DNA from: Clostridiales bacterium
GTDB lineage: Bacteria > Bacillota > Clostridia > Oscillospirales > CAG-382
DNA: 64,000 nt
Reading direction: 5' to 3'
Assembly: GCA_003343885.1 (NCBI GenBank)
Contig: QAKH01000071.1
Span: forward strand, 7,357 to 71,356
Shown here: in pieces, positions 13,510-35,494 of the stretch
How the letters are laid out: every line of letters starts with the position of its first letter
How positions within the stretch are numbered: the stretch's first letter is position 1
Made by a program: the position numbers and the translations under genes
The notes under the pieces: model-generated
What the model saw: only the letters and a program-made list of their open reading frames with translations
Told to the model about the DNA's origin: nothing
Databases searched by the model: none

Positions 13510-14664
13510 ATGAACAAACAATATAGACTGTTGATTTTGCTTGTGACGGTTGTTGTTTTTGTCACAGGCTGCGGTGAATTTGATAGGAGTGCCGAAGAAA
13601 AAAAGATCAAAATTGTTGTCTTGGGGGATAAAGAAAATTTTTATCCCGACTTTGAATTGGCGGTAAATGACGCAGTTGGTGATTTGCAAAACGAATACGG
13701 CGATTTGAAGTATGATTTCGAAGTCGTTTTCTATGACGATGACGATGATTACAATAAGGGAATGCAGTACGTTGACACAGCCGTAAAAGACAGCGAAGTA
13801 ACAGCGGTAATCGGTTCGGTTAATAGGGAAATAAACAAAACCGCAGCAAAAATGTGTGAGGAAAACGGTAAAATATTTGTAACTCCGTATTTTTTGTACG
13901 ACAGTGTTTTTCAGGATAACCAATACAGCATGGCATTTTCTATGTGCATATCTGCAAGAAATGTCGGAAGACTGCTGAGAAATGCCGCCGTAAAAACTAC
14001 TGCTGAAAAATGGGCTGTTTGTACGTCGGACACAACTTTTGAGATGGAGGAAACAAGGGGATTCGTCTTTGATGAACAGGACGGAGTTACAGTAATAGAC
14101 TGCGTTGATATAGATGATTTAATAAATAATTTTGATAATGTTTTGAACCGCTGGAAATTACTTGGTATAGAAGGACTGGTAATGTTTCCGGAGGATGATG
14201 AGGGCTTTGATATACTGAAAAAAATAAAAGCGGTAATTCCGGATTTGACAGCCGCCGGCGATACGGCGTTTGATAATTCAGCTCTTTTGGATAACGACGA
14301 GGAGTTGCGCAGTATAATGAGCGGCTTTATAATGGCTGATGAATTTTATTTTCCGGAGCGTATGACGCCGGACCGGGAGAGAGAATATATTGCCTTGAGC
14401 GATCGATATTCGCTTAACCATGAAGGTTACATAGACATTTGGTATTTTCAGGGGTATAACGCCGTCAGAATGATAGGAGATACGGCTGTTAAAGCAGAAA
14501 CGGATGATCCGGAAACAATCGCAAAAACATTGCATGAGGAAGGGTATGACGGATACGTGCAAAGTTTTAAGTTTCAGAAAAATGGATTGTCGGAATCCGA
14601 GCTAGATTACTATGGGATTATGAATGATGACGGATACTTTGAAATAAAGTATCTCGATGAGTAG
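13510..14664 (+). CDS. type-1 periplasmic-binding-protein-like (Leu/Ile/Val-binding family-like) lipoprotein
   Basis: The signal peptide carries the lipobox VTGC. The blocks KIVVLGD, VTAVIGS and KIFVTP follow the Peripla_BP_6 layout as I recall it. Confidence 0.7.
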   Translation: MNKQYRLLILLVTVVVFVTGCGEFDRSAEEKKIKIVVLGDKENFYPDFELAVNDAVGDLQNEYGDLKYDFEVVFYDDDDDYNKGMQYVDTAVKDSEVTAVIGSVNREINKTAAKMCEENGKIFVTPYFLYDSVFQDNQYSMAFSMCISARNVGRLLRNAAVKTTAEKWAVCTSDTTFEMEETRGFVFDEQDGVTVIDCVDIDDLINNFDNVLNRWKLLGIEGLVMFPEDDEGFDILKKIKAVIPDLTAAGDTAFDNSALLDNDEELRSIMSGFIMADEFYFPERMTPDREREYIALSDRYSLNHEGYIDIWYFQGYNAVRMIGDTAVKAETDDPETIAKTLHEEGYDGYVQSFKFQKNGLSESELDYYGIMNDDGYFEIKYLDE

Positions 14665-14668: not shown

Positions 14669-15556
14669 ATGATTATGAGCTTTTTCAGAAAAGAAGCGTT
14701 GGATAACTTCGAAACGGATGCAAATCAGTTTAAAAGCGTAAAATCCATTCACTTGCATGTATGGCTGTTGATACTTTTGTTAACTGTATGCTGTGCTTTT
14801 TTTGTTTATTGGCTGGTGTTTGGCACAATTAATGAAACTTTGTCGGTACAGTGTGTCGTGTGGCCGTATGAAAAGGTGAATAATGTTTATTCTTCAGTAA
14901 ACGGAGAAATATCAAAAGTCCTTGTGCAAGAGGGTACATTTGTTGAGACGGGAGATATCTTGGCAGTGCTCCCCCAGAATGAACTTTTAGCGAGTATATC
15001 TCAGCAGAAATCTATTGCGCCGGAAGATCAGGAGCAAATATCTGCCCTCCGGCGCCAGTATATAGCTGTTTCACTGGTCCGTGCGAAAACAACAGGAATT
15101 GTCACATATGTCGCCGACGAGCATAGCTATGCCGAAAAGGGAACTAAAATTGCCGAAATTGCGCCATTTGATAAGAACGGCAATGACCGCACTCTTGTAG
15201 CTTACCTGCCGGCAGATAAGATGGGACTTTTGTCGCTTGGTATGGAAGTACAGGTAACGCCGGAATATCTCTCAAGAGCAGGCAGTGGGTTTGCAGTCGG
15301 GTACTTGTCTGAAATATCCGATGTATCGGTAAAAGGCGAAGAAATAAAGTCGGACGACACAATTATGTTTACGTCAAACATGACTGAGAGCGAAAGCTAT
15401 GTAAAAGTAGAAATCACACTTCTGCCGGATAGTACAAATCCGGGAAATCTGAAGTGGTCGAGAGCAGAAAGCCGGAATATAGATTTTGAGATAGGCACTG
15501 TTTGCAGCGGAAATATTGTTATTCATCAATCGAATCCGCTTAATTGGCTGTTTTAG
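14669..15556 (+). CDS. short HlyD-family bacteriocin-secretion accessory protein
   Basis: The N-terminal FRKEALD is followed by a single TM and a barrel-sandwich block G.I..V.V.EG..V..GD.L. It starts 4 nt after the SBP gene. Confidence 0.75.
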   Translation: MIMSFFRKEALDNFETDANQFKSVKSIHLHVWLLILLLTVCCAFFVYWLVFGTINETLSVQCVVWPYEKVNNVYSSVNGEISKVLVQEGTFVETGDILAVLPQNELLASISQQKSIAPEDQEQISALRRQYIAVSLVRAKTTGIVTYVADEHSYAEKGTKIAEIAPFDKNGNDRTLVAYLPADKMGLLSLGMEVQVTPEYLSRAGSGFAVGYLSEISDVSVKGEEIKSDDTIMFTSNMTESESYVKVEITLLPDSTNPGNLKWSRAESRNIDFEIGTVCSGNIVIHQSNPLNWLF

Positions 15557-15565: not shown

Positions 15566-17707
15566 ATGAAAAAAGGCAAAAAAATCAGACCGATACTCCA
15601 AATGGAAAATATGGAGTGCGCAGCAGCTTGTCTCGGAATGATTTTGGATTATTACGGAAAGAAAGTGCCAATTGAAGAATTGAGACAGGAATGCGGCGTC
15701 ACCAAAAATGGGGTAAATGCCGCATATTTGGCTAAAGCTGCCATGCACCACGGCTTGGAGGTCAAAGCTTTCAGAGTCGAGCCCCGGCAGTTAAAAACGG
15801 CAAATCTCCCGGCAATTATCCATTGGAATATGGATCACTTCATAGTTTTGTGCTCCTTTTCCAAAAAAGGCGCGTTAGTCGCAGATCCGGCAGTAGGGTT
15901 GAGAACAGTTTCATATGAGGAGTTAAACATCTATTTTACCGGTATTGTACTGGAATTTTCTCCCGGAGAATCTTTTGAAAAGGGAATAAATACAAAAAAA
16001 TCCGATTATATAAGACGCTGTGTAAATAAGGTTGTTAAATATTACGGCGTGTTTCTGTTAATAGAATTATGCACAGTTATTGCCGGAATATCAGTTATGT
16101 TTATAAATTCCGCATATATTGATAACGTGCTTGAAAGCAGAAATACGGAAAATTTAAAAATAATACTTTTTGTTCTGTTTTTTGCCGGCGGCATTTCGCT
16201 GTTTGCATCAATTCTTGCGGCAGGAATAAGAATTAGACTCGGCAAAAAACTTAATATGTATATTAACTCCGGATTTATAACAAAAATGTTAAAGCTGCCC
16301 ATGGCGTTTTACGAGCAAAGAAACGGCGGCGAGCTTGCGGGAAGACAAAGCGACGCCATGTCAATGGGCCGGAATATATCGGATACCCTTTTTGTGGTTT
16401 GTATTTCGATAATACGTATTTTGGTTTATGCCGGATTGCTTTGTGTGCTTAATGTAAAAATAGCCGTAATAGGTATTTTAGCTTCACTCGTCAATGCTTT
16501 TGTTCTTTTAAAAAGTACAAAAACAAGACAGCATGTCACAAATCAGTATTTGAGAGATATGGGCGCCTTAGAGGACGACGTTTCTAAGACTATCGGCATG
16601 ATTGAAACAATAAAGTCGTCGGGAGCGGAAGACGCGGCATTCGCACGGCTGCTTGCAAAAGGCAATCGGATAATGAATAATAATGTTAACCTTGAGAAGC
16701 TGACAGTTGTGTCGGATAACCTGTTTACATACCTTAATTATATCGGTTCTGCCGCAGTTTTAATGACAGGTGTTTGGGAAATCCTGTCCGGAAGGATTAC
16801 CGTGGGATTGTTGGTGTCTTTGGGCGCACTGACTGACGCTTTGCTCTCTCCGTTGGAGATGTTGGCAGGTATTGGCAGAAATGCGGAAGAGATAAAATCG
16901 CAGTCTGACAGAATAGACGATATTATGAATTATCAAAGTGAAAAAGGTTTTCTGCCGGAAACGGAAGACGGAGCAAGCGTTATTGAAAAGGGAGAGGTTA
17001 CTCTAAAAGATATCTGCTTTGCTTATAATCCCATAGATAAAAATTTCATAGATAATTTCAATATGACAATATCTCCGGGAGAAAGCTTGGCAATTACCGG
17101 CAGAAGCGGAAGCGGCAAGTCAACAGTCGCAAGAATTATAGCCGGAATTTTGTCTGAAAATGCCGGAAAACTTATTTTTGACTCACACGATAAAAGTGAT
17201 TTTCATAAGTATTACTTTTATACAAAAGTCGCCTCAGTCAGTCAGAATATAAAACTGTTCGAGGGAAGCGTGTTTGATAATATCACAATGTGGGACGAAA
17301 CCATTGCGTATGATAAAGTCGTCGAAGCTGCGAAAACCGCTTGTATTCACGATGATATCATAGATAGAAAAAACGGATATTATGAACATGTCGCCGAAGG
17401 AGGAAAGAATTTTTCGGGGGGACAACGACAGAGAATCGAAATAGCCCGAGCTCTTGTAAAAGAACCTAAAGTCCTGATATTAGACGAAGCAACCTCGGCT
17501 ATTGACGCTGATACTGAAAATAAGATAATACAAAATATCAAAAATTCAGGTATCACAGTGATTATTATCGCACACCGACTTTCAACAATACGTGATTGCT
17601 CGTGTATTGTTGTTATGAAAAGCGGCAGGATTTCCGAGTTGGGAACGCATCAGGAACTGCTTGAGAAAAAGGGCGAGTATTATGATTTGGTCAGGAGTGA
17701 GAGATAA
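15566..17707 (+). CDS. peptidase C39 domain-containing ABC exporter (PCAT; NHLM-type ABC1-like)
   Basis: The N-terminal QMENMECAAACLGMILDYYG supplies the oxyanion Gln and catalytic Cys, and HWNMDHFIVL supplies the His. This is followed by 6 TMs and an NBD with GRSGSGKST, LSGGQRQR and ILDEATS. Confidence 0.9.
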   Translation: MKKGKKIRPILQMENMECAAACLGMILDYYGKKVPIEELRQECGVTKNGVNAAYLAKAAMHHGLEVKAFRVEPRQLKTANLPAIIHWNMDHFIVLCSFSKKGALVADPAVGLRTVSYEELNIYFTGIVLEFSPGESFEKGINTKKSDYIRRCVNKVVKYYGVFLLIELCTVIAGISVMFINSAYIDNVLESRNTENLKIILFVLFFAGGISLFASILAAGIRIRLGKKLNMYINSGFITKMLKLPMAFYEQRNGGELAGRQSDAMSMGRNISDTLFVVCISIIRILVYAGLLCVLNVKIAVIGILASLVNAFVLLKSTKTRQHVTNQYLRDMGALEDDVSKTIGMIETIKSSGAEDAAFARLLAKGNRIMNNNVNLEKLTVVSDNLFTYLNYIGSAAVLMTGVWEILSGRITVGLLVSLGALTDALLSPLEMLAGIGRNAEEIKSQSDRIDDIMNYQSEKGFLPETEDGASVIEKGEVTLKDICFAYNPIDKNFIDNFNMTISPGESLAITGRSGSGKSTVARIIAGILSENAGKLIFDSHDKSDFHKYYFYTKVASVSQNIKLFEGSVFDNITMWDETIAYDKVVEAAKTACIHDDIIDRKNGYYEHVAEGGKNFSGGQRQRIEIARALVKEPKVLILDEATSAIDADTENKIIQNIKNSGITVIIIAHRLSTIRDCSCIVVMKSGRISELGTHQELLEKKGEYYDLVRSER

Positions 17708-17709: not shown

Positions 17710-19824
17710 GTGGAGCTGATGAATGAGAACGAAAAAATCAGTATGAAAAACAGAGCCGCCGTTTCTTTCGCTTATAAAAACGTCTACGAATCGATGGAAG
17801 GGCATACAGTCGGCGGCAGTATAAACGCAATACTTGCGTTTTTGAACGAAAAAGAGAGAGTTGACGCCGAGTTATCATTAAACGAACAGCTCCGGTTTAT
17901 TGATGAACACCTGCATATAAAGAATTTTTACGTGGAGCTGGATAAGGATTGGAATAAAAACGTATCGCTACCTATGCTCGCCCTGAAGACAAACGGCGAA
18001 TATGCCGTGGTTTTGCCCGGCTGTGACGGCTCCGCAATACTTGCCGATACAAAAAAGAAAATAAATGACAGAGATAAGTTGCAGTATGAGGATAGAGCTC
18101 TGTGTTTTTATAAGGTTTTTCATAAGCAGAAAATTTCAAAAAGAGATTTAATAGGGTTTATTTTTAAATCTTTGTCGGCAAAAGAGCTTGTTATTATTCT
18201 TGCTGTAAGCGTTTTCACCATATTGTCCGGCTTGGTCGTGCCGTGGGCGAATCGATTTATTTATGATAAGGTTGTGCCTACCGGAAATACTTCTCAGGTG
18301 TTTCCTGCGGCAGCATTAATGTTTTCAACAATTTCAGTTGCCGCAATTTTTAGGATTCTTCAGTCTTTCATTATTACCAACTGTACTCTCAGAATGAACG
18401 CTTATGTGCAAAGCGGAATATACGACAGATTGTTGAGTATGAAACCGGGCTTTTTCAAAAATACAAAATCCGGTGAAATATCAAAAACAGTTATGGAATT
18501 TTCAAATCTGTCAAAAGTTTTTTCAGTGCGAAGCATAACTGCCGTAATAAGCATGGTGCTGTCCGCAGCCTACCTTTTTCAGATAAATTATTACGCACCC
18601 AACCTGTTGGGATTTGTAATACTTCTTGCGGCAGTCATATTGGTATTGGTGGTTGCGGAAGGATATTGCAGTATTCGTTGGCAGAATGATTACGTTGTCT
18701 CTATGTCGTCAATGTCAGGATTTTGCTTTGAGATGTTTTCCGGTATGGAGCAAATAAAGCTCAACGGTGCGGAAGCAAGATTTTTCAGACGTTGGAGCGA
18801 ACACTATGCGCAAGTGTCGCAAAAAGAAAATATGCCGTTTTTGCTTAAATATGCAAGCGTGCTGTGCAGATTTATATTGGTGTTGGCAACGGCAGTCATT
18901 TTCCTTATGGGAAAAGATTTGACTCTTTCGGAATACATAGCTTTTTCCGCCGCATACGGAGCATTTATCGCTGCATTTATGAAAGGCGGGGAAGCGGTAG
19001 AGATAATTACTGCTTTCCGGAGCGCATATAAAATAGCAAAACCGATTTTTGACGGAGAGTGCGAAGACAGTGAATCGGAAAAGCTCAAGCCGTCGGAGTT
19101 TAAAGGTAATATAACGGTTTCAAAATTGACTTTCTCTTATGACGATAATCAAAGAAACGTAATAAACGACTTGTCGCTTGAAATAAAAAAAGGTCAAAGT
19201 ATCGGAATTGCCGGAACGTCAGGCTGCGGAAAGTCAACATTTTTAAGACTTCTGCTCGGATTTGAAAGACCGGATTCCGGAAGCATTTATATAGATGATT
19301 TTGATTTGCGTGAACTTGATTTGAAAAATTACAGAAAACACCTTGGCGTAGTTCTTCAAAATTCAAGTTTAATTTCAGGCGATATATATGCAAACGTAGC
19401 AATGATGAAGCCGGACGCAGGTGCGGAAGAAGTGTGGAGGGCTTTGGAAACAGCCGGATTAAAGGAAGAGGTCATGAACCTTCCGCTCGGACTCAGAACG
19501 CCTTTGAGCGAAGACAATTGTATTTTGTCCGGTGGTCAGAAACAAAGAGTTTTAATTGCGCGCGCGGTATTGAACAAACCGGATATTTTAGTGCTTGACG
19601 AAGCTACTTCCGCTCTCGATAACATAACGCAGGAAGCCGTAATGGAAAACTTAAATAAGATAAACTGTACCAAAATATTTGTTGCTCACAGGCTGTCTAC
19701 ACTGCAAAACTGTGACTGTATTTATGTCTTTGATAAAGGTACTATTGCAGAATACGGAAACTACGATACCCTGATGCAAAAGAAGAATGTGTTCTACTCA
19801 TTGGTTGCTAATCAGATGATTTAA
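17710..19824 (+). CDS. ABC exporter with a non-catalytic N-terminal domain (NHLM-type ABC2-like)
   Basis: No Cys/His C39 motifs are present in the first ~150 aa. The rest is a TMD plus an NBD with GTSGCGKST, LSGGQKQR and VLDEATS. It starts 2 nt after the PCAT gene. Confidence 0.85.
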   Translation: MELMNENEKISMKNRAAVSFAYKNVYESMEGHTVGGSINAILAFLNEKERVDAELSLNEQLRFIDEHLHIKNFYVELDKDWNKNVSLPMLALKTNGEYAVVLPGCDGSAILADTKKKINDRDKLQYEDRALCFYKVFHKQKISKRDLIGFIFKSLSAKELVIILAVSVFTILSGLVVPWANRFIYDKVVPTGNTSQVFPAAALMFSTISVAAIFRILQSFIITNCTLRMNAYVQSGIYDRLLSMKPGFFKNTKSGEISKTVMEFSNLSKVFSVRSITAVISMVLSAAYLFQINYYAPNLLGFVILLAAVILVLVVAEGYCSIRWQNDYVVSMSSMSGFCFEMFSGMEQIKLNGAEARFFRRWSEHYAQVSQKENMPFLLKYASVLCRFILVLATAVIFLMGKDLTLSEYIAFSAAYGAFIAAFMKGGEAVEIITAFRSAYKIAKPIFDGECEDSESEKLKPSEFKGNITVSKLTFSYDDNQRNVINDLSLEIKKGQSIGIAGTSGCGKSTFLRLLLGFERPDSGSIYIDDFDLRELDLKNYRKHLGVVLQNSSLISGDIYANVAMMKPDAGAEEVWRALETAGLKEEVMNLPLGLRTPLSEDNCILSGGQKQRVLIARAVLNKPDILVLDEATSALDNITQEAVMENLNKINCTKIFVAHRLSTLQNCDCIYVFDKGTIAEYGNYDTLMQKKNVFYSLVANQMI

Positions 19825-20156: not shown

Positions 20157-23100
20157 ATTAAATTTTTAGCCAAACGTTTGACCGGTATCGTCCTGATACT
20201 CAGTATGCTGCTGCCGGAGTTCGCAACAATGGCCGTAGTCCAGGACTCGCCTCAGTCTAATGAGTCGTCCCAGATTTCTTTTTCCGCCTCAAAGTATACG
20301 GCGATGGAAAATGAAGGCGAGTTTGAAATTACCGTTGTAAGAGAGGGCAATACAGACAAGAGTATAAGCGTGGCCTTTAAGGCGGCGGATTTTCTCGCGG
20401 AGTACGGCGTTGACTACTTGGTTTACGATTCCGACGGCGTACAATTGCCTCTTACTGAGGGAATAGCACCGGACGCGGAAGATTTTAAGCCGGTTGGCAG
20501 CGGCGAAACAGACAATGTCGAACTAAGCGGAAATTCCGGTTCTGCCTTTGAACTTGATGGTGTCGAAACAACTGAGGAATTTGCCGCAGGCTCGTCATAC
20601 GCAGGACCTGATAATTGGTTGGCAGATAATACAGAGGATCAAATTGAAACAGAAAATAATTCCACACCTGCCGAAGTTGATAAAAACAATACATCGCAGA
20701 CTACAAGGAAAGATTCCGGTTCTTCTCTAATGAATGCACAGGCGGAATATTTGGATTTGCCGGACGAAAATTTAAATGAAATTTCTTCCATCGAGAATGC
20801 GCTTGAAGACGTTCACGAATACTTTGAAAGCGCGCGCGGTGCAATGGGTATTATTACATTCGAGCCCGGAGAAACCGAGAAAACCTTTACTGTGGAACTT
20901 ATCGACAACAGTAAAGCTCAGGCGGATAAAGTGGTTCTCTTTGCTCTTATGGGCGTAAACGGTGACGAAAACACACTTATCGAAGCAAACCCGACGGCGT
21001 ACCTTACAATTATTGATGATGAAAAATACGAAACGCCTGTCATTTACCCGGAATTTAACGAGATTACTTTAACAGAAGATGAAAGTGCGTATTCATTAAA
21101 GCTCTTGAGGGAAGAGGGCGTTGATTATTACACTTCGGTTACCGTCTATACCGTTAAGGAAACCGCTGCTGAAGGCGTGGATTATGACAGAATAGATAAT
21201 GTAAAAATATCTTTTGTTCCCGGAGAAACCGAGAAAACGGTAAATGTAACTGCTAAAGCTTTTGATAAAGATTCGTCGTTCGGAATAAGAATTGAGGGCG
21301 ACGAAACGTGCCGTGTTGATAATGAGTACGTTAGAGTTTATATACAAGCCTCCGAAGAAACCGTATCGGAATCCGGAGAAGTAACCGAAGTAGAACTTAT
21401 GGGCGAAAGAGCCGTTAAGTATGCCGGAAGCGCAACTACTACCACGACGCTGAATGAACTTGGACTTGTTACGGGACCGACAACAGGAAGCCAGGACGGC
21501 TGGTCAAGAAAATCATATAACTCGTCGAGTAAATGGTATGACTACGGTCTTTACGAAACATATAAAAACAGCGGCAGAACATGGATTTCGAGTCAACCGA
21601 CCGATTTGACCGGCGTAAACTATGTCAATTTTCCTCATCAGAATATCGGTGAACACAGCTTCGGCTGGGGAAATTACCACCTGTTTATAGAGGCTCTTTC
21701 CGACGGTTATCAGTTGAGATCATATTATTCTAATCCGCAGGCTGCAATCCCCACCGTCTACGATAACCATGGCTGGACATATACAGATATGGACGTGAGA
21801 AACCTTAACGGAGTGCATTACTTCAGATTCGGCGGCAGAAATGACGGAACTGCAGCGGATAACTTTGAGGTGTGGTTCGGAAACCCCGTTACATTCAAAT
21901 GGCGCCTGATAACTTTTGACACTGCGCATTCTCCGCAGTATTTTGAGCGCTTTTCCTATGATTATGACACCAAGACCGGACAGAAAACAAAAATACCGTT
22001 TACTGACGGAGGAAATGATTACGTTTATTATCCGGGCGAAATATACTTGGCAGATAACAGCGGAAACCGGATAACAGGTTTTTACGGAAACGCAAATACA
22101 TTTATTAAACCGGTTGCAAAAAATGCTGCGGCTAATGAGAAATTAGGAATTGAACTTGAAGGCGTTTACCTGTACGTAAAAAACGATTCCGAGCTTTACA
22201 ATAAGAATTTAAAGGCACCGTTTGACGATATATGGACTACCGACAAAACTGTGTGGATTCCGTCGTCCGGAGTAACTCTCAATCAAGAGTTCCAAAGGCA
22301 GCTTTTCAGCGTGTTTGGAAATAACCTGACATCTGTTAAGGTTATGCCGAAATATAAGCAGAGAGAAGTAAAATTAAACCTGTATAAGGCAGATAATGAC
22401 GAAACATATATCGCTAATATGGATGATAATACAGACGGAGCGGATATTGCCGACGGAGCGTATTATTACATAAAGAGTTTAAACAGTAACTGGTATCTGG
22501 CTGATTACAGTGAAGGAATTTATTTGTCAAGTCTGCAGAACAGAATACCGATTAGTGTGATTCAGAGCTATAAGATTGACAAATACACGAAGTGGAAACT
22601 TGTTTCGACCGGCGACGGTTACTACAATATTGTCCATGTAAACGGATACTATCTTGACGTCAGAGGTGCCGCGACTGCAAACGGCACGAGAATACAAACG
22701 TATGAGAGCAACGGAACCGACGCTCAAAAGTTTAAACTTCAAAAGCTAAGCGACGGCTCATATGTTATTTATACTAAAGTGTCCGGCAATAAATCGTGCG
22801 TAGACGTGTCCGATTACAGCACAAAAGCCGGTGCGAATGTTCATGAGTGGCAGTATAACGGAACAAGCAACCAGAAATGGATTCTTGAAAATGTGGAAAA
22901 TTTTGTGCAGTATTCTTTCCCTATAAATTCAGTAATAAAAATGAGGGCAGAGGCTGCGCCTAAAAAGACTATCACAGGATTTACCCTTGTCGGCGCAAGC
23001 GGAACACGTCCGTATACCGACGATAATGCCCCGGAAAAGATTTCTTTAACCATCACCGAGAATACGAATCTCTATCCTAAAACTGAAGCTCAGGGAATGA

Positions 23101-26100
23101 ATGTCGCGTATATGCCGGGCGCGCTTAATAAGCCTTCCGACCTTACAAATGTGGTTTACCGCATGCCGTCCGTCGTTGACGCGGAAACTACAACAGAAAC
23201 TACGGACAAAAACGGAGATTTGAATATTGAAACCGTTTATTCCGGCATGCAGTGGATAATGGCAGTAAATGCTCCTGAAGGAAAAATTGTCAAGTGGACA
23301 AACGGAACCGGCGACATAAAGAACGTAAACGGCGCAATAGACGTAAGCCCGGATCCTACCATCAATGAAAAGAACGAAAATACCGATTTCGGTTTAAACA
23401 GAGGCCTTTATTCACCGGTATACGGAAATGTTATGGCAGGCACTATCCTTCAGAACAATACAAAGTATTACTATGAGTTCGAGGATATCAACAGTGAGCA
23501 AGAAAAGAGGATAAGGGGGCAGATATACCGTGAAAACGGAACTTTCCGCGACATTGTGCTCGGAAATGAACTCGGCATGGAGCCGCTGTCCAATTCCATA
23601 ATAAATGTTGCGGGAACTGCCGGAAATACCGATTCAAACGGATATTTTGACATGACTGTTACCGGTATTCCGATAAGCGGATACGTAAGCCTTGTAATAA
23701 CCGATCCCGAAAGCGGCACGACGTATACGACAACTGCGCTTGCGAACTATATGTACGCAGTGCTCCCGGCATATGAGTGTTTCAAGCCGGCGGCACTCAG
23801 CGTTGTGTACGGCGAAAAAACACATACCATATCAGGTACGGCGGCTAATATCTATGACGATACGCTGACAGTCATCGCTTCGGTAGACAACTGCGGACAG
23901 CTTGTCGCAAGAGAAGTAAAGTTTTATATTGTCAAAAATAACGGTATAACTATCGATTGCGCATTAGACTCACGTTTTAAAATCAGTTTTGCCAACGGAA
24001 CCGCATCTCTTGAATTTAATCCCATGTCTGTAATGGATACCGGAGATAAAATATACGTGTCGTTTGTCGATCAGAACGGCAAGGAATATAAGAAGATGGA
24101 TATTGGCTACGACTTTGTCAAACCGCTGTCGCTTAAGGAATTTTTATTCCCGCTTATAGGCAGCTCGCTGATAGAAGATATATATGAGTCAGATATTGTC
24201 ACGGAACTTATAGGCGATCCGCTCGGCGATATTTCACTTGGCAAAATCGGCTTTGACGATCCGGTAACGAGTACCATTCTTCCTCCCGGCATTGACGACA
24301 CGCAGTATGAGTATATACGCTCAATCTATAAGTACGGCGATTTCAATCAGGCGCTGAAAACCTTTAAGTCAAAGGAAACTGAGGACAAAGATCAAGCGAC
24401 CGAGGGCAATAAGAGCGAAACGACTGCCGATAATCTGAAGGACGCCGCTAATGAGGCAGGAAAAGACACGCAGGACGCTGCGTATAAAACTCAAAATTCG
24501 TTTACTTGGGAATTTTCAGTAAAGGCGGCTTTCGGATTCTGTATAACAACAAGACAGGACGAGGATGGCGAGTACAGATATTACTTTGAGGAACTCGATT
24601 TCCTTGTCGGAGCTGATTATGACGTTGACGGCGAGGTGACAATAACGCTGCCGATAGGTATGAATGTTATTGTAAGCGGTAAGCTTTCCGGAGATGTAAC
24701 CGGTATCTATCAGCTTAAAACGGACTATACCGGAGATCCGACCTGGTCGAACAATAAAGTAGAGTACAGCACAGAGTCTTTCGGACTGTTTAAGGAAATT
24801 GACAACGTAAACCGCTACGTGTACTTAATGTTGAATCCGAATATCAGAATAGGACTTGACCTTAATTATTCGATAGTTACCGTCGGCGGCGGAGCAAACT
24901 TCAGCTTTGACATGGACTTCCGCTTTGGTCTCAATAAAAACAAGATGACGACCAAGATGTACGGAGACATGACATACTGGTTCGACTATCATGTAAAGGT
25001 TCTCAGCTTTAATGTGTATGAGGGAAAGACGGAGGAAAGTACAGTAAAGCTCTTCAGTCAGAACGCAAACGGTCACTTTGACCCGGATATAATGGAGGGA
25101 CTTTTAAATCCTGACGGCGGCGAAGCCGAACTCTCTTCAACCCTTATGTCACGTGACTACCTTGAAAATTCAACGGAGTTCTCGGGAGATAGTTTTGTTG
25201 ACCTGTATGATATAGACGCGGCTGACGGAACTGTCGAGCAGGTACTTCAGAACGGAGTTTATCCGGACGCAAAGTATAAGGCAGTTGTAACCGGAGAAGA
25301 TACAGCATTACTAGTGTTTATAGGCGACGTGCCCGACAGAAGCGCGGCAAACAGAACAGGACTTTATTATTCTGTCTATGACGGCGCAAAATGGTCGACA
25401 CCGGTCCTTGTAGACGACGACGGAACACTCGATGATTATCCCGAAGCGTTTGACCTTGGCGACAAGGTACTGATTGCCTGGTCATCCGCAGACCGTGTGC
25501 TTGATGACGGCGTAACCGTACAGGAGGCACTTACTTCACTTGATATCAAGACAGTGTTCTATGATAAAGAAACCGGCGAGTTTGACGATGTCGTAAGACT
25601 TACGCATACTACAGAGCAGGACTATACAGCAGATGTTATGCCGAAAGCGGCGTATGATGAAAGTACCGGAAAAATAATTTTGTATTATACCAAAACTGAG
25701 TATAATGAAGCTGTTACAACAGAAGATTTACTTGGAAATCCGGCGTGGGAGTCAGAAGAATCGTCAGGAAGCCCGTCGGTAATAGCGTACAGATTTTATG
25801 AGAACGGAACTTGGAACGGCGCTGAGGACTATACGGATGAGGAACTCGAAGGAGTAGCCGACAAGGAGGCGTATAAGGAAAACTGGTATGGCCAGCGCTT
25901 CCTTGACACAAGACTTAATAAAGACAGCGGCGAAATGCTGAGAATTGTTGATACCGACGCTATCTCCTATAACGGCTTGTCGATTTACGCTTGGACTGTC
26001 GACTACGATAAGGACCTGAATACTACCAATGACCGGGATGTTTTCATGCAGATATATAACTTTGATGAAAACAGCTTTACACACGTTATCCGCGTCACGG

Positions 26101-28640
26101 CAGAAGCAGGCGCATACGCAGCTCCGCATTTCGGAAGATATAATGATAATACATATCTGTTCTTCTCGGCAATTGGCGACCTTGGTAACGGAGAAGACGC
26201 CGGAAGCAGCGGTATAGCTTATATAAATATTACCGAACCAATTAAGAACGGCAGATTTACTCTTGTAAGCGAAAATAATACCGAGTACTATAAGCTGCAA
26301 TATACCAGTATAACCGCTCCTACAGTTTCCGCAGACGGTACCGAGATACCGTCAACTGAAGAAACAATACTCATAAAACCGCAGTACGCAGTTACCTTTA
26401 ACGGATATGTTAATAATTACAGCGTTGACATTGACGAAAATGAGCGTATGTATTTAACTTGGTCCGATATTCCGGAAGGCAAAGAAAACCAGCGCCAGCT
26501 CTTTACCTCAGTGTATGATGTAATGAGTGACGGCAGTGAGGAAAAGGTATATTCCGACTCTGTTTGGAGCGAGCCTTTTGTGCTGACGGGTGCAGAAAAT
26601 ACCGGTTACACAGATGTCGACACATTTGTGCTTAACGGAAAGCTTTATGCGGTTGCTAATAAAGCGCCATACACTGAGGGCGAATCAGGAAGTATGGTTT
26701 TGGACGAAAACTCGTCAAGCATGGTGATTGTCGAACATACTCCTTACTCAAAACTTGTTTCTGATGAGGAAAACGCACTTTCCGCAGATACCGGATATAT
26801 CTATGAAGGAAAAGAATTCGTGCTTACTTCATCTGTAAAGAATGAAGGCGTTAAGCTCGTAAAAGGACCTGTCACATTTAAATTTACCATGACAGCCGGT
26901 GGAGAAACAACAGATCTTGGCACCGTTGTTCGTGAAGAACCGGTCGGCGGCGGAAAAACCTCTTCCGCAAGCATTACAGTTCCTGCTCTTGATGAATTGC
27001 CGGACGATTTGACATTTAATGTCGCTGTAAGTGCCGACGGAAGTGAATTTTCACAGGAAATGAAGCTTGTTAAAGAATATTCGATCGTTTCTGACGGCGT
27101 TGTCACCATAGACAGACTGCAGGGCGGAATAAGAAAGTTCAGCCTGAATGTGGAAAATATCGGAAATATTTCTTCGGACGACGTGAGAGTTGTCGCGTAC
27201 ACCCTTAACGACGGCGAAAGAACCGATACGGTAGCTGATTTTGACGTTGGAGCAATTGAAGCTGACAGTATGGCATATGTAAGCGGTGTTTTGGATATCC
27301 AGGACAGCATGTATACGATCGATGAGAACGGACTCGGTACGGTTGACCTTGCGGTTTGCGTAACTGTCGCCGGAAAAGAAATATACAGCTTTACAACTCA
27401 GGACGGAAAGAGCTTTGATAAGCTTGCCATAGATACTCTTTCTAAGGTTGAAAGCTTTGACGTACAGAAAAACATCATTGCAGCAAAACCGGGCGAGCAA
27501 ATTGAAATTGTTCCAAACATAGCAGGAGATCTCCAAAACGACGACGTAAAGGTTATATGGAAGTCGGATAATACCGATGCGGTAATGGTAAACGACTTCG
27601 GCGAAATATTTGCCATAGACAATGGAAGCGCGACACTAACAGGATACCTTGTTCCGGCAGTCGAAATGATTGTTTTCGACGCTAATGCAAATACAGAAAG
27701 AAATACCATACCGGACAATATCCCCGATAACCTGATAAAAACGGCGCAGGTAAAGGTCAACGTAAATAATAAAACTACCATAATTACTTCCGGCGGAGAC
27801 AGCAAGCCTGTCACTGTTACATACCAGGTAACCTTTGAAACTAACGGCGCTGGTGAGATAGGAAGTGTTGAAGTCGTCGAAAACGGCGTTGTTTCAGATC
27901 TTCCGACACCTGTAAAAGAAGGCTTTACCTTTGACGGTTGGTTTACGGACACTGCCCTTACCGTGCCTTTTGACTCACAAACGAAAATAACTTCCGATAT
28001 CACGCTTTACGCAAAATGGACAGAAATTTCAGAGAATCCTGACATTTCTGACAGTTGGGAAAATCCGTTTAAAGATGTTTCGACTGACGACTGGTTCTAT
28101 GAAAACGTAAAGTATGCATATGAGAACAAGATTTTCAACGGCGTGACGGATACCGAGTTTGCACCGAACAGCCCGCTTACAAGAGCAATGCTTGTAACTG
28201 TTCTTTACAGAGTTGAGGGCGAGCCGGATACCCAAAAAGACAGCGGATTTGATGACGTTTCAAAAGACAGTTATTACAGTAAAGCGGTCGCATGGGCAAA
28301 GGAAAACGGAATAGTAAACGGTATTACTGAAACAGAATTCGCACCTGACGCTAACATTTCAAGAGAACAAATAGCGGCTATTATATACAGATATGCAAAA
28401 TTCAAAAATCAGTCACCTACCGGGGCATGGGCAATAAAGCTTGACTATGCAGACTTTGCTGATATTTCGGATTGGGCGGCAGAAGCAGTGATGTACTGTA
28501 AACTTGAAGGCATAATGCAGGGCGATGAAAATAATGAATTTAAGCCGAAAGATGACGCTACAAGAGCTCAGGCGGCTGCTATTATTCAAAGGTTTCTGGA
28601 ATGTATTGAAGCCGAGAAACAAGCGACAGTGAATGACTAA
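20157..28640 (+). CDS. giant S-layer-homology-anchored multidomain surface protein (Calx-beta repeats, ricin-type lectin, CARDB-like, Big_2, Listeria-Bacteroides repeat, 3x SLH)
   Basis: The 2820-aa ORF has these elements in order: N-terminal Calx-beta-like repeats (e.g. ISFSASKYTAMENEGEFEITVVREG); a ricin B QxW-type trefoil (AQKFKLQK, NQKWILEN); two CARDB-like modules; Big_2 (VKVIWKSDNTDAVMV); the repeat YQVTFETNG...FTFDGWFTD...LYAKWTE; and three C-terminal SLH motifs. The start is probably ATT 20157 (see findings); the track uses TTG 20178. Confidence 0.9.
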   Translation: MKFLAKRLTGIVLILSMLLPEFATMAVVQDSPQSNESSQISFSASKYTAMENEGEFEITVVREGNTDKSISVAFKAADFLAEYGVDYLVYDSDGVQLPLTEGIAPDAEDFKPVGSGETDNVELSGNSGSAFELDGVETTEEFAAGSSYAGPDNWLADNTEDQIETENNSTPAEVDKNNTSQTTRKDSGSSLMNAQAEYLDLPDENLNEISSIENALEDVHEYFESARGAMGIITFEPGETEKTFTVELIDNSKAQADKVVLFALMGVNGDENTLIEANPTAYLTIIDDEKYETPVIYPEFNEITLTEDESAYSLKLLREEGVDYYTSVTVYTVKETAAEGVDYDRIDNVKISFVPGETEKTVNVTAKAFDKDSSFGIRIEGDETCRVDNEYVRVYIQASEETVSESGEVTEVELMGERAVKYAGSATTTTTLNELGLVTGPTTGSQDGWSRKSYNSSSKWYDYGLYETYKNSGRTWISSQPTDLTGVNYVNFPHQNIGEHSFGWGNYHLFIEALSDGYQLRSYYSNPQAAIPTVYDNHGWTYTDMDVRNLNGVHYFRFGGRNDGTAADNFEVWFGNPVTFKWRLITFDTAHSPQYFERFSYDYDTKTGQKTKIPFTDGGNDYVYYPGEIYLADNSGNRITGFYGNANTFIKPVAKNAAANEKLGIELEGVYLYVKNDSELYNKNLKAPFDDIWTTDKTVWIPSSGVTLNQEFQRQLFSVFGNNLTSVKVMPKYKQREVKLNLYKADNDETYIANMDDNTDGADIADGAYYYIKSLNSNWYLADYSEGIYLSSLQNRIPISVIQSYKIDKYTKWKLVSTGDGYYNIVHVNGYYLDVRGAATANGTRIQTYESNGTDAQKFKLQKLSDGSYVIYTKVSGNKSCVDVSDYSTKAGANVHEWQYNGTSNQKWILENVENFVQYSFPINSVIKMRAEAAPKKTITGFTLVGASGTRPYTDDNAPEKISLTITENTNLYPKTEAQGMNVAYMPGALNKPSDLTNVVYRMPSVVDAETTTETTDKNGDLNIETVYSGMQWIMAVNAPEGKIVKWTNGTGDIKNVNGAIDVSPDPTINEKNENTDFGLNRGLYSPVYGNVMAGTILQNNTKYYYEFEDINSEQEKRIRGQIYRENGTFRDIVLGNELGMEPLSNSIINVAGTAGNTDSNGYFDMTVTGIPISGYVSLVITDPESGTTYTTTALANYMYAVLPAYECFKPAALSVVYGEKTHTISGTAANIYDDTLTVIASVDNCGQLVAREVKFYIVKNNGITIDCALDSRFKISFANGTASLEFNPMSVMDTGDKIYVSFVDQNGKEYKKMDIGYDFVKPLSLKEFLFPLIGSSLIEDIYESDIVTELIGDPLGDISLGKIGFDDPVTSTILPPGIDDTQYEYIRSIYKYGDFNQALKTFKSKETEDKDQATEGNKSETTADNLKDAANEAGKDTQDAAYKTQNSFTWEFSVKAAFGFCITTRQDEDGEYRYYFEELDFLVGADYDVDGEVTITLPIGMNVIVSGKLSGDVTGIYQLKTDYTGDPTWSNNKVEYSTESFGLFKEIDNVNRYVYLMLNPNIRIGLDLNYSIVTVGGGANFSFDMDFRFGLNKNKMTTKMYGDMTYWFDYHVKVLSFNVYEGKTEESTVKLFSQNANGHFDPDIMEGLLNPDGGEAELSSTLMSRDYLENSTEFSGDSFVDLYDIDAADGTVEQVLQNGVYPDAKYKAVVTGEDTALLVFIGDVPDRSAANRTGLYYSVYDGAKWSTPVLVDDDGTLDDYPEAFDLGDKVLIAWSSADRVLDDGVTVQEALTSLDIKTVFYDKETGEFDDVVRLTHTTEQDYTADVMPKAAYDESTGKIILYYTKTEYNEAVTTEDLLGNPAWESEESSGSPSVIAYRFYENGTWNGAEDYTDEELEGVADKEAYKENWYGQRFLDTRLNKDSGEMLRIVDTDAISYNGLSIYAWTVDYDKDLNTTNDRDVFMQIYNFDENSFTHVIRVTAEAGAYAAPHFGRYNDNTYLFFSAIGDLGNGEDAGSSGIAYINITEPIKNGRFTLVSENNTEYYKLQYTSITAPTVSADGTEIPSTEETILIKPQYAVTFNGYVNNYSVDIDENERMYLTWSDIPEGKENQRQLFTSVYDVMSDGSEEKVYSDSVWSEPFVLTGAENTGYTDVDTFVLNGKLYAVANKAPYTEGESGSMVLDENSSSMVIVEHTPYSKLVSDEENALSADTGYIYEGKEFVLTSSVKNEGVKLVKGPVTFKFTMTAGGETTDLGTVVREEPVGGGKTSSASITVPALDELPDDLTFNVAVSADGSEFSQEMKLVKEYSIVSDGVVTIDRLQGGIRKFSLNVENIGNISSDDVRVVAYTLNDGERTDTVADFDVGAIEADSMAYVSGVLDIQDSMYTIDENGLGTVDLAVCVTVAGKEIYSFTTQDGKSFDKLAIDTLSKVESFDVQKNIIAAKPGEQIEIVPNIAGDLQNDDVKVIWKSDNTDAVMVNDFGEIFAIDNGSATLTGYLVPAVEMIVFDANANTERNTIPDNIPDNLIKTAQVKVNVNNKTTIITSGGDSKPVTVTYQVTFETNGAGEIGSVEVVENGVVSDLPTPVKEGFTFDGWFTDTALTVPFDSQTKITSDITLYAKWTEISENPDISDSWENPFKDVSTDDWFYENVKYAYENKIFNGVTDTEFAPNSPLTRAMLVTVLYRVEGEPDTQKDSGFDDVSKDSYYSKAVAWAKENGIVNGITETEFAPDANISREQIAAIIYRYAKFKNQSPTGAWAIKLDYADFADISDWAAEAVMYCKLEGIMQGDENNEFKPKDDATRAQAAAIIQRFLECIEAEKQATVND

Positions 28641-28674
28641 ACTATAAAAATACAATTGAAAGGAGAATAAAAGT

Positions 28675-28827
28675 ATGTCAGAAGAAAAAAACAAGGCAAC
28701 AAGTGCCGAAGAAAAGAAAGAAGAGTTAAATCTTGAAGATTTGGAAAAGGTTCAGGGCGGTTCAATCAGAGACGTAAAATACACCCAAACCAAGCCAATA
28801 AGTAAAGATACTCAGGAAAAAATTTAA
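28675..28827 (+). CDS. double-glycine-leader precursor peptide (50 aa; predicted 29-aa leader and 21-aa core)
   Basis: This ORF is below the ORF-track size cutoff. RBS AAAGGAG (28659-28665) precedes ATG 28675. The product is MSEEKNKATSAEEKKEELNLEDLEKVQGG-SIRDVKYTQTKPISKDTQEKI with TAA at 28825-28827, and a terminator follows immediately. Confidence 0.7.
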   Translation: MSEEKNKATSAEEKKEELNLEDLEKVQGGSIRDVKYTQTKPISKDTQEKI

Positions 28828-28836
28828 TTTAGAGAA

Positions 28837-28881
28837 AGAGCTTCAAGGTAACCGAAAGGATTGCCCTGAAGCTCTTTTTTT
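28837..28881 (+). terminator. intrinsic terminator after the GG-leader peptide gene
   Basis: Stem AGAGCTTCAAGG / CCCTGAAGCTCT (1 mismatch) followed by a 7-T run. Confidence 0.85.
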
Positions 28882-29230
28882 GTCAAAAGCATAATAAAAC
28901 TATAATTTGTATTATAGTCTATGTCGCCTTATCATGGTCTGCTTGATTAACCACTTTTTGTTTTTCCTTTAATTGGCAGACTATTTTCGTTTTATCTATA
29001 TGGACAATTTTCTTGTCATATGGTACAATAAACATGATATATGGCAGCCTTAAAAAAATGGACTGTCGATAAATTCTTAAATAACGGCGCCGCCTATGGC
29101 TGACAAGCTAACGATTTTTTTACAGTTAAAGTTTTATTGACTGTTATAAATTATAAATAATTAATTATAGATGTTAATATAAGTATTATTTACTTAAAAT
29201 AAAGTTAGAAAAGTACAGTGGGAGTATTAA

Positions 29231-29740
29231 ATGAAACTGATATTAAGTGATAAACCGTTAAATATTACCGTAAAAAATGAAGATGTAAAATATATTGACT
29301 TGTCGTCATTAAAAATATCAAATTGCGTCGGCTGCTTTGGATGTTGGACTAAAACTCCGGGTAAGTGCGTAATCAGGGACGACGCTGTAAAGGTGTATCC
29401 GGAAATCGCAAAAAGCGACACGCTTCTTTATGTTAGTCACATAAAATACGGCGGATATGATACTGTAATGAAAACAATGCTCGAACGTGCCATACCTGTT
29501 CAACAAGCGTTCATACGATTGGTAAACGGAGAAACACATCATGTTCAGCGAAAAGTTGTACCTAAGAACGCAACTATTATTGCATATGGAGAGATAGGCG
29601 ATGAAGAAAGGGAAGTCTTTGAAAAACTCGTTTCGAGAAATGCACATAATATGTGCTTTGAGAAATATCGTATCGTTTATACTACCGAGGAAAAATTAGA
29701 GGAAATTGTAATGGGCGAGGTGAAAAAATGGGAAGCGTAA
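29231..29740 (+). CDS. flavodoxin-fold protein with an iron-sulfur-flavoprotein-type CX2CX2CX7C motif
   Basis: 169 aa with CVGCFGCWTKTPGKC. The N-terminus lacks the usual GSPR FMN loop. Confidence 0.6.
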   Translation: MKLILSDKPLNITVKNEDVKYIDLSSLKISNCVGCFGCWTKTPGKCVIRDDAVKVYPEIAKSDTLLYVSHIKYGGYDTVMKTMLERAIPVQQAFIRLVNGETHHVQRKVVPKNATIIAYGEIGDEEREVFEKLVSRNAHNMCFEKYRIVYTTEEKLEEIVMGEVKKWEA

Positions 29741-30336
29741 TAATTCTGAACGGAAGTCCGAGAGCACCTAAATCAAATTCCAAACGTTATGCAGAATTGT
29801 TTGTGAAAAGCTGTGATTGCAAAACGGAGTATTATAATATAACAAAGAACAATCACGAGGAGCTTTGCGGTAAATTGGGGGATTTTTCGGATGTGTTGTT
29901 TGTTTTTCCGCTTTACGCCGACGGTATTCCGGTAACGCTGTTAAATTTCCTGAAAAATCTCGAGAAGAATCCTCCTTTGCAAAAGCCTACAATTTCCGTA
30001 TTGATAAACTGCGGTTTTTTTGAATATCGGCAGAATGATACAGCTGTAAATATGATAGAACTGTTTTGCAAACAAAATGGATACCGTATGGGATCCGTTT
30101 TAAAAATCGGCAGCGGAGAAGCTATACTTGATACTCCGTTTAAAGTTTTTGTTACAAGAAAAATTAAAAAACTCGCAGCCTCTGTATCTAATGAAAAATA
30201 CTGCACACAGCATGCCACAATGCCAATAACCAAAGGTATGTTTCTTAAGGCTTCGACGGCATATTGGACAAAATACGGAAAGAAAAACGGTATTACCAAG
30301 GAAATGATGGAAACAATGAAAATTGAAGATCAGTAA
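29728..30336 (+). CDS. flavodoxin-like / NAD(P)H-dependent FMN reductase family protein
   Basis: The N-terminus is IILNGSPRAPKSNS. It overlaps the upstream gene by 13 nt. Confidence 0.65.
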   Translation: MGSVIILNGSPRAPKSNSKRYAELFVKSCDCKTEYYNITKNNHEELCGKLGDFSDVLFVFPLYADGIPVTLLNFLKNLEKNPPLQKPTISVLINCGFFEYRQNDTAVNMIELFCKQNGYRMGSVLKIGSGEAILDTPFKVFVTRKIKKLAASVSNEKYCTQHATMPITKGMFLKASTAYWTKYGKKNGITKEMMETMKIEDQ

Positions 30337-33642: not shown

Positions 33643-33987
33643 AGGAAGTCCTCCTATCCAGTCAGACGGTTAGAAACCAATATTTTATCAATATAAATCC
33701 GTGCAAAGCGAACGAAATGAAAAAATAAAAATGTGCAATCGTTCTCTTCGCATGGCTATCATATCATTTAAAAAATGCTGTGTCAATAGATTTTTTCAAA
33801 AACATAAAATAATTTTTACTTTATCTGTTTTGTGTGATGTAACCTTGCTTTTATATAAAAATTTTTTTGTAGAAATAACTCTGGTATACGCAATATTTTT
33901 GATAAATCTACTGTAAATCCTTATATTGAAAAACAAACTAAGTTGTGTTAAAATTACGGTGACAGAGCCGAAAGGATGTTTTAGCCT

Positions 33988-35272: not shown

Positions 35273-35291
35273 ATAAAAATAGTTTTGAATG

Positions 35292-35326
35292 CAGTTGCTG
35301 GGGATTAACCGGCAACTGTTTTTTTA
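35292..35326 (+). terminator. intrinsic terminator after the sigma/anti-sigma pair
   Basis: Stem CAGTTGC(TGG)/(CCG)GCAACTG followed by a 7-T run. Confidence 0.8.
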
Positions 35327-35369
35327 AAAACAAATAATTTTATAAAAAAATAAATTTTTTAAAAAACAT

Positions 35370-35397: not shown

Positions 35398-35494
35398 TTA
35401 AAACTAGAAGACTGTTTATTGAGGTGATTCCAATGATATAAAGTAAGTAGTAGAAAAAAGAATTAATTTATTAAAAATGGAAGGTGAAACTGAT

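Follow-up and report, generated by a model that had tools for sequence, protein, structure and literature searches.

What purpose is served by a 50-codon gene, encoding a peptide with an export leader, that sits directly behind the gene for a giant cell-surface protein? The question is raised by a 64,000-nucleotide stretch of contig QAKH01000071.1 (positions 7,357 to 71,356 of the forward strand; assembly GCA_003343885.1) from a Clostridiales bacterium of the Oscillospirales (CAG-382), referred to here as the window. A preliminary description, made from the sequence of the window, had drawn attention to a small open reading frame (ORF) with a double-glycine (GG) leader and had compared its product to signals of the ComC/BlpC type. 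The follow-up analysis reported here indicates that the peptide is the predicted GG-leader cargo of a PCAT, an ATP-binding cassette (ABC) transporter containing a peptidase, that its conserved core appears to be undescribed, and that its gene is found in fixed association with the gene for the giant surface protein.

The 50-codon ORF is a genuine gene. It is more than a chance frame because it is the sole credible ORF combining a GG leader with a ribosome-binding site in the 64-kb window (pattern scan of all small ORFs), because homologues of about 50 aa align with it from end to end, and because it evolves under purifying selection. Moreover, public metagenome assemblies contain the exact 50-aa protein as a gene call on contigs from 103 blocks, with constant synteny. 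Re-reading of the sequence bore out the ORF, its Shine-Dalgarno sequence, its GG leader and the 34-nt gap that separates it from the TAA stop codon of the giant gene (28638-28640), all as first described. Counted back from the GG, the leader of the window peptide carries L-12, L-10, E-9, D-8, L-7, V-4, G-2 and G-1, and so has the hydrophobic residues at -4, -7 and -12, the acidic residues near -8 and -9 and the terminal GG by which such leaders are recognized. The strong hairpin with T-run reported behind the stop codon was recovered by folding (−29.1 kcal/mol; z = −7.19 relative to dinucleotide shuffles, with none of 200 shuffles as good); a simple terminator scan had missed it because the stem holds an internal bulge. 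Likewise, co-transcription with the giant gene, already proposed in the preliminary description, remains likely, the tight spacing being kept in relatives. The label 'unannotated' is correct for an ORF track restricted to at least 60 aa, but many public assemblies do include the gene, as a protein without a name. The case shows that conserved genes are hidden by small-ORF filters.

An exhaustive HMMER search of 1.8 billion cluster representatives returned, in a first pass, 21 proteins of 49-63 aa that are 40-62% identical and nearly all aligned over most or all of their length. A profile built from these proteins retrieved 86 clusters (46-74 aa), none of which has a name beyond 'hypothetical protein' and several of which stem from metagenome-assembled genomes of Oscillibacter. 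HMMER was needed to reach the distant members, a word-indexed protein search with the peptide alone finding only a 98% variant. One match, P0094 (E = 2.9e-4), was set aside as false or very distant; it lies in an unrelated context beside tRNA synthetase genes. Pooling of the profile clusters with the copies found in genomic loci resulted in a family of 114 unique sequences of about 50 aa. The frame is thus conserved, in line with what the preliminary description had expected of a profile search and synteny comparison, and the peptide is not confined to this genome: homologues occur in other species and are called elsewhere.

Leader residues recur throughout the 114 sequences: E-13 in 108, L, I or V at -12 in all 114, L-10 in 98, L-7 in 109, V-4 in 111, G-2 in 114 and G-1 in 112, with E/D-9 and D/E-8 also conserved. 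The core is 21 aa long in 79 of the 114 members and follows the consensus [SAG][LI][RK][ND]-V-x-[YF]-T-x-T-x-x-I-S-x-D-T-x-x-K-I, in which V5 is present in 69 of these 79 members, T8 in 61, T10 in 76, I13 in 73, S14 in 66, T17 in 64, K/R20 in 72 and I/V21 in 75. Averaged over the family, the core has a net charge of +1 and the leader one of −5. A Cys residue occurs in just one of the 114 cores and a hydrophobic stretch in none, consistent with the initial judgment that this Cys-free, hydrophilic core resembles neither a class II bacteriocin nor a lanthipeptide or sactipeptide. The core is under purifying selection: the pooled ratio of nonsynonymous to synonymous changes per site (pN/pS) is 0.32 between orthologues, with synonymous sites near saturation, and lies between 0 and 0.5 in the six closest pairs. 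In a comparison of 26 gene copies, AAGGAGG or a near variant precedes the ATG by 7-10 nt in most. Within the species, two abundant alleles differ at leader residue 8 only, and the core is invariant except for rare singletons; a single-nucleotide polymorphism comparison among conspecific contigs was dropped as evidence of conservation, because an identical protein sequence had been the criterion for retrieving these loci.

No Pfam or NCBIfam model matches the core, nor does any of them cover the family. Every sub-threshold match lies in the leader, around the GG, and the models involved are those of ComC, Bacteriocin_IIc, cerein 7B and lantibiotic leaders. The ComC model (PF03047) reaches 13.5 bits, below its cut-off of 20.4, over leader residues 16-32 only, and the EntF and VP1 models match one member each at E-values too weak for membership (0.056 and 0.16, respectively). 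Because every model match is confined to the leader and the matches extend to all GG-leader families alike, we consider the leader to be generic and the core to fall outside described families. Literature searches, which covered sources other than subscription journals, turned up no account of the peptide family or of its pairing with a giant protein.

What invariably accompanies the peptide gene is neither the exporter nor a sensor but the giant surface-protein gene. In an unbiased test of this pairing, GTDB species representatives were searched with an alignment of the giant protein alone, after which the downstream DNA was inspected. A peptide-family ORF was found downstream of the giant gene in 22 of the 22 loci where the giant gene is nearly complete and sequence continues past its 3' end, with hidden Markov model (HMM) E-values ranging from 1e-11 to 1e-24 and gaps of 0-570 nt. 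Of 25 loci, 20 have gaps of 0-34 nt, several of these being as short as 0-1 nt; locus L021 has two tandem copies of the peptide gene and L038 a degenerate one. The genomic contexts of distant family members also place the peptide gene directly behind a gene for a Calx-beta protein of 2,650-2,720 aa in other species. Giant proteins of relatives are orthologous to that of the window along most of its length, at 36-50% identity (25% for the more distant L013). Furthermore, paralogues sharing only the C-terminal half of the giant protein (L055, L060, L064 and L077) are each followed by a GG-leader ORF, as is a giant-like fragment in L027; the core of the latter is Thr/Pro-rich and most paralogue cores are Pro/Asp-rich. 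Because paralogous giants pair with differing cores, the class of peptide follows the class of giant. Loci L047 and L061, in which the giant match is fuller, carry diverged members of the peptide family itself. The preliminary account of the genomic context had thus recognized the exporter and missed the giant gene as the invariant partner.

The giant protein contains Calx-beta domains, a Ricin-B insert, a beta-propeller with an Ig-like stalk, a Flg_new repeat and three SLH repeats. Pfam and NCBIfam searches of its central 1,600 aa gave no match, and a sequence search of the PDB returned only matches to the Calx-beta, Ricin and SLH parts. In an AlphaFold model of residues 1640-2540 (nt 25095-27797; pLDDT 79.8), the region is all-beta, with a propeller followed by Ig-like domains; bacterial sialidases, integrin alpha ectodomains and PL24 lyases are its best structural matches in the PDB. 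Proteins homologous to the region bear either SLH or dockerin anchors. Translation probably starts at an ATT codon (20157), 8 nt after GAAAGGA, the listed ORF start being a TTG codon at 20178. The ATT start would provide a Sec signal (MKFLAKRLTGIVLIL / MKFLAKRLTGIVLILSMLL), the positively charged n-region of which would be dropped by a start at the TTG codon. The giant protein was ruled out as cargo of the PCAT, since its orthologues have ordinary Sec signals and no GG leader. The Ricin-B domain (residues ~763-885, nt 22460-22910) is skipped in BLAST alignments to the orthologues of L011 and L015 and, being absent from these two orthologues compared, looks like an insertion in the lineage of the window. 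When the conspecific locus L004 is compared with window positions 28379-28506, about 35 substitutions are found in the last SLH repeat between nearly identical flanks, and this dense block looks like a recombination tract.

The operon in front of the giant gene provides a candidate route for export. Judging from its domains, the C39-ABC exporter is intact, as had been proposed together with its upstream position and shared orientation: Peptidase_C39 is matched at 2e-37 over positions 4-132 of 133, ABC_membrane and ABC_tran are present, Q12 and C18 are found at the spacing expected for the active site, and the protein aligns end to end with the solved structures of PCAT1 (4ry2) and ComA (8hf7). 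The earlier account of the exporter was right on this component and missed the three-part make-up of an HlyD-like protein, a C39-ABC transporter and a second ABC protein, the N-terminal 160 aa of which match no Pfam family. For all three parts the best NCBIfam models are of the NHLP export type, each scoring below its curated cut-off: TIGR03794 for the HlyD protein (104.6 bits against 156.2), TIGR03796 for the C39-ABC transporter (704.8 against 853.3) and TIGR03797 for the second ABC protein (565.1 against 709.4). Of the 20 loci with enough upstream DNA, 18 have an HlyD or HlyD-like gene, a PCAT gene and a second ABC gene immediately upstream of the giant gene. One clade has a long HlyD protein and a binding protein, the Peripla_BP_6 gene preceding the HlyD gene in nine loci including the window, and a second clade has a short HlyD-like form of 157 aa with the same N-terminal motif.

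In each of 21 loci scanned on both strands, the window included, the peptide is the only credible GG-leader ORF, L027 having a second one; this makes the peptide the only candidate cargo, as well as the only candidate pheromone, in the scanned loci. The second GG-leader ORF of L027 (core AGKTTRPPTVTIHKYTETVKEKA; region 2134-3414) starts 48 nt after a 359-aa ORF resembling the C-terminal part of distant giant paralogues, and both ORFs lie just upstream of the exporter operon. The interval between the second ABC gene and the giant gene (window ~19825-20157) holds two extra ORFs of 180 and 173 aa in the conspecific locus L002 (182-1410), and a 65-aa ORF with a gene for a sigma factor resembling the extracytoplasmic function (ECF) type in some loci of the distant clade (L036 9179-9867). 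Coordinates of the module are collected in Table 1.

Table 1. Features of the exporter-giant-peptide module in the window (positions counted from the first letter of the window)
Feature	Position	Strand	Details	Basis
Peripla_BP_6 lipoprotein gene	13510..14664	+	First gene of the exporter operon in the clade of the window	Pfam
HlyD-family accessory protein gene	14669..15556	+	HlyD_3 and Biotin_lipoyl_2 domains	
C39-ABC transporter gene	15566..17707	+	C39, transmembrane and nucleotide-binding domains	Pfam, NCBIfam, PDB alignment
Second ABC half-transporter gene	17710..19824	+	ABC_membrane and ABC_tran; no recognizable peptidase domain	
Giant cell-surface protein gene	20157..28640	+	~2,827 aa	Pfam domains, orthology, structure model
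Shine-Dalgarno sequence AAAGGAG	28659..28665	+	9 nt before the ATG	Read from sequence
Peptide gene	ATG 28675, TAA 28825-28827	+	50 aa	Read from sequence
Double-glycine leader	28675..28761	+	29 aa, MSEEKNKATSAEEKKEELNLEDLEKVQGG	Sequence and family profile
Predicted mature core	28762..28824	+	21 aa, SIRDVKYTQTKPISKDTQEKI	Sequence and family profile
Intrinsic terminator	28830..28882	+	Long hairpin, 3' arm ending in a T7 run (28875-28881)	

What, then, might the exported peptide do? Kinases of the AgrC, ComD, BlpH, PlnB and FsrC class sense exported peptides, and GG-leader pheromones exported by PCATs of the ComA/BlpA type are their classic ligands. Clustering of neighboring ORFs across 28 loci yielded a ~240-aa family in 10 loci, identified by Pfam as Response_reg plus LytTR proteins, and a ~450-aa family in five loci, consisting of HATPase_c_5 (GHKL) kinases with a multi-pass N-terminal half. 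Six sensor genes were examined with Pfam (regulator in L020, L039, L041 and L061; kinase in L020, L039 and L061), the others being assigned by derived profiles. In total, an AgrC/ComD-type kinase and/or a regulator of the LytTR type or a related type lies beside the module in 11 loci, in at least five arrangements. Kinase and regulator genes are divergently oriented upstream of the module in L020, L021, L024 and L039, co-oriented upstream in L061 and, in L041, flanked by the second ABC gene and the giant gene. A regulator gene alone is found divergently upstream in L044 and upstream in L023; L038 has a regulator gene nearby. The peptide gene is directly followed by a kinase gene in L018 and by a receiver-domain gene in L019; the latter arrangement recurs in L015 and L016, two loci found by way of the peptide and left out of the 11. 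A STAS-like ORF, judged by eye from the sequence, lies downstream in L061.

Two of these loci contain repeats whose geometry weakly recalls that of LytTR boxes. A perfect 16-nt direct repeat with 20-nt periodicity is located immediately upstream of the giant gene in L041 (9727-9764), a locus with a LytTR regulator, and the 10-nt sequence TTTTTTGTGA is repeated at 20-nt spacing in L039 (2484-2513), in the intergenic region between the regulator and binding protein genes.

Based on these observations we tentatively favor, while granting that it is slightly more apt to be wrong than right, the idea that the peptide is a ComC/BlpC-like autoinducer wired to the operon of the giant surface protein. 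The peptide gene would be carried on the same message as the giant gene, ending at the strong terminator, and given this shared message and terminator, peptide output would track giant expression. The C39 domain of the upstream exporter would cleave the leader after Gly29, and the hydrophilic 21-residue SIRDVKYTQTKPISKDTQEKI would be released outside the cell; both steps are suggested by the anatomy of the locus and by well-established PCAT biology, and are common to every explanation considered here. An AgrC/ComD-type membrane kinase could then sense the peptide and phosphorylate a LytTR-type regulator that switches on the exporter-giant-peptide operon. The resulting positive loop, presumably one of autoinduction, would tie display of the giant adhesin-like protein to cell density or confinement. 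In the genome of the window, the sensor pair would lie outside the 64 kb or have been lost. An autoinducer explains both the recurrence of peptide-sensor-type kinases with LytTR-type regulators and the presence of a single GG-leader ORF at those loci, and it is ranked first because its mechanism is known and its components are found next to the module. The initial suggestion of a ComC/BlpC-style signal is thereby strengthened by the kinases and regulators of 11 related loci, but not by the window, where neither was found.

Several findings weigh against an autoinducer. The absence of a neighboring histidine kinase or response regulator, stated in the preliminary description, holds for the entire window as far as profiles of AgrC/ComD-type kinases and LytTR-type regulators are concerned, other two-component types not having been searched window-wide; conspecific contigs likewise have no kinase or regulator of these types. 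A cognate kinase with a LytTR regulator is thus missing at the window locus and found, wholly or in part, in 11 related loci, sensor genes being present at only about half of the related loci in general. Neither is there a LytTR-box motif conserved across loci, and a direct-repeat search of the window revealed no repeat like those of L041 and L039. Moreover, a clade comprising L028, L031, L032, L034-36 and L043 has a SpoIIE-type PP2C phosphatase and an RsbW-like kinase instead, with an ECF-like sigma factor gene between exporter and giant gene in L028, L034 and L036. This clade keeps the same core motif, and a conserved ligand for non-homologous sensors is awkward. Known GG pheromones diversify into pherotypes, whereas the core studied here is kept from genus to genus and, within the species, does not vary among the abundant alleles. 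Finally, the peptide gene is fixed to the giant gene (22/22) and not to a kinase gene, unlike the situation in comCDE, blpRHC and plnABCD. In six loci of the deviating clade (L036, 385-4779; L028, L031, L032, L034 and L043), a MatE/HATPase_c_2 fusion, a 568-aa phosphatase and the RsbW-like kinase are encoded before the exporter and constitute a partner-switching module in place of a LytTR two-component system.

In its proposed working, the module comes nearest to ComC/CSP-ComAB-ComDE and BlpC-BlpAB-BlpHR of streptococci and to the systems of PlnA, SppIP and EntF, which are induction peptides of lactic acid bacteria. Shared with ComC/BlpC are the short GG-leader precursor, the C39-ABC export with an accessory protein (predicted here), the AgrC/ComD-class kinase (HATPase_c_5) and/or LytTR-type regulator beside the module in 11 related loci, and an unmodified, Cys-free mature peptide of about 20 residues (again predicted here). 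Unlike in those systems, the window lacks the sensor pair and has its peptide gene behind a giant gene rather than before a kinase gene, and the peptide family is very hydrophilic, conserved across genera and devoid of pherotypes. In addition, the two-gene ABC pair is nearest to the NHLP type, the ComC and EntF matches being sub-threshold and limited to the leader, and the output would be an adhesin-like protein, not competence or bacteriocins.

GG peptides other than bacteriocins have precedents, among them BriC and VP1 of Streptococcus pneumoniae. Another is RtgS of the same species, which is exported by the PCAT RtgAB (PMC7018657, PMC7595303). These peptides, PCAT-exported like the predicted cargo described here, serve colonization, biofilm formation or fitness, and their receptors are unknown or atypical. 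In contrast to the present family they are under control of Rgg/SHP or ComE, and none is coupled to a giant surface-protein gene; there is no sequence relation either, the VP1 model matching a single member at E = 0.16. In Faecalibacterium prausnitzii, MAM (Microbial Anti-inflammatory Molecule) has a conserved GG processing site, is encoded near genes for a PCAT, an HlyD-family protein and an Ig-domain protein, and was proposed to be exported by a PCAT without being a bacteriocin of the classical kind (PMC8836110). MAM therefore offers a precedent for such cargo in gut Oscillospirales, although it is a non-homologous protein of about 15 kDa without a fixed giant SLH partner. PCAT1 of Clostridium thermocellum with its cargo CtA (4ry2, 6v9z) is likewise a clostridial PCAT with a small GG-leader cargo, CtA being of unknown function; among solved structures, PCAT1 is the nearest homologue of the C39-ABC protein (318 bits over the full length). 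PCAT1 is a homodimer, however, whereas here a second, peptidase-less ABC half-transporter is encoded alongside, and CtA is longer and unrelated to the peptide.

The points that sit uneasily with an autoinducer are better accommodated by an explanation in which the 21-mer, once exported, works outside the cell as a partner of the giant protein, be it a ligand, a small subunit or a trans-acting, complementing strand; on balance we regard this as rather unlikely. The peptide would dock on a conserved site of the giant, for example on the propeller or the Ig-like stalk, and be needed for folding, stability, activity or release, while the adjacent regulators would answer other cues and the 21-mer would not be a diffusible signal. 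Such a partnership better explains the 22/22 pairing, the core shared across clades, the absence of pherotypes and the match between peptide and giant classes. The adjacency extends beyond the giant-retrieved loci to L061, L047 and the degenerate copy of L038; the narrow gaps (no more than 34 nt at 20 of 25 loci, shrinking to 0-1 nt at several) would suit co-translation in fixed proportion; and the core motif is kept in clades with non-homologous regulators, without pherotypes within the species. The core also changes at about the rate of the giant, identity between the window and L039 being 62% for the core and ~34% for the best segment of the giant, and that between the window and L036 being 38% and ~36%, respectively. 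A fixed core length of 21 aa with a C-terminal K-I points in the same direction, as does the correspondence of peptide class with giant class in the paralogues (L055, L060, L064 and L077) and the fragment of L027. This correspondence could even reflect a two-gene surface machine, in which each class of Sec-exported, integrin-like giant has its own class of ABC-exported peptide, a proposal that we hold to be no less doubtful. On the other hand, no portion of the giant is significantly related to the core in sequence: when 22 giant proteins were searched with a profile of the core alone, the best match had E = 0.67. The structure model shows ordinary, complete-looking domains, the recurrence of peptide-sensing-type kinases and LytTR-type regulators is left unexplained, and there would be no precedent for devoting a 6-kb exporter to a 21-mer cofactor.

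One variant, in which the peptide is a free copy of a strand of the giant, was rejected; it had arisen from a by-eye likeness to the end of the Flg_new repeat and to YYTKTEY in the propeller, and is unsupported. The YYTKTEY segment itself (giant residues 1836-1842, ~nt 25683-25703) is invariant or nearly so in all giant orthologues. Its resemblance to V-x-Y-T-x-T of the peptide is not significant (E = 22) and may be due to chance.

Returning to the exporter, the NHLP-type models that best match its three parts (TIGR03794/03796/03797) might suggest that the peptide is the precursor of a peptide made on ribosomes and modified post-translationally (RiPP), tailored by an enzyme encoded elsewhere in the genome. 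The strongly conserved T10, S14, D16, T17 and K20 would then serve as sites for ester or amide cross-links, glycosylation or epimerization at Thr, Ser, Asp and Lys. The three-gene layout is indeed that of NHLP/Nif11 RiPP systems with NHLM export, and individual family members have faint sub-threshold matches to XyeA, CCRG-2 and ATP-grasp target models. However, these matches lie in the shared GG-leader region, just as those to bacteriocin models do, the exporter parts score below the curated cut-offs, and the leader is of the short classical GG type and matches neither NHLP nor Nif11 leader models. Across about 28 loci, moreover, no gene for a radical-SAM, ATP-grasp, LanM/LanB or YcaO enzyme or a glycosyltransferase recurs, the only recurrent neighbors being the giant protein, exporter parts, binding protein and regulators. 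In agreement with the preliminary description, neither a maturation enzyme nor an immunity gene was found among the flanking ORFs scanned. A RiPP precursor is therefore very unlikely. The weakest explanation is that of an unmodified class II-like bacteriocin or microcin-like toxin functionally unlinked to the giant gene, an unlikely role to which we attach hardly any probability, since, even though a GG leader, a PCAT and an HlyD-like accessory protein form the standard class II export kit, LytTR-type regulators and kinases often control bacteriocin loci and the Bacteriocin_IIc and cerein 7B models match the leader below threshold, the core is strongly hydrophilic, has a charge of about +1 and lacks the hydrophobic, amphipathic, Gly-rich or Cys elements of class II, no family of small membrane immunity ORFs recurs across the 28 loci (none being seen at 28827-29231 in the window), the 22/22 pairing with an orthologous giant gene is given no rationale, and a sequence kept across genera suggests an endogenous target that is itself conserved.

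Beyond the module, two overlapping genes of 169 and 202 aa follow the terminator (29231-30336). The 169-aa product has a CxxCxxCxxxxxC motif, and only the 202-aa product gives a weak EFR1-ferredoxin match; both genes are kept downstream within the species, but not in the loci of other species. Further along, positions 31777-38450 and 40218-45164 hold envelope genes, including a lone ABC exporter gene on the minus strand, a gene for an ECF-type sigma factor with one for a DUF4367 protein, a gene for an LRR_5/SLH protein and a further ORF of 1,648 aa. As a whole, the region looks like a cell-surface island.

GG peptides tend to be classed either as bacteriocins or as pheromones of streptococci. 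The peptide family is widespread and unnamed in uncultured or barely studied Clostridia of gut and rumen, among them Monoglobus-like bacteria, Oscillospiraceae and Acutalibacteraceae. If the peptide is the extracellular partner of the giant protein, it would extend PCAT exporters to a new task and add a new mode of surface-protein assembly. If, as we tentatively prefer, it is an autoinducing signal, it would constitute, to our knowledge, the first case of Com/Blp-style quorum sensing in these taxa. Such a signal would control the surface display of a giant adhesin-like protein, and would thus bear on gut colonization and on attachment to substrates.

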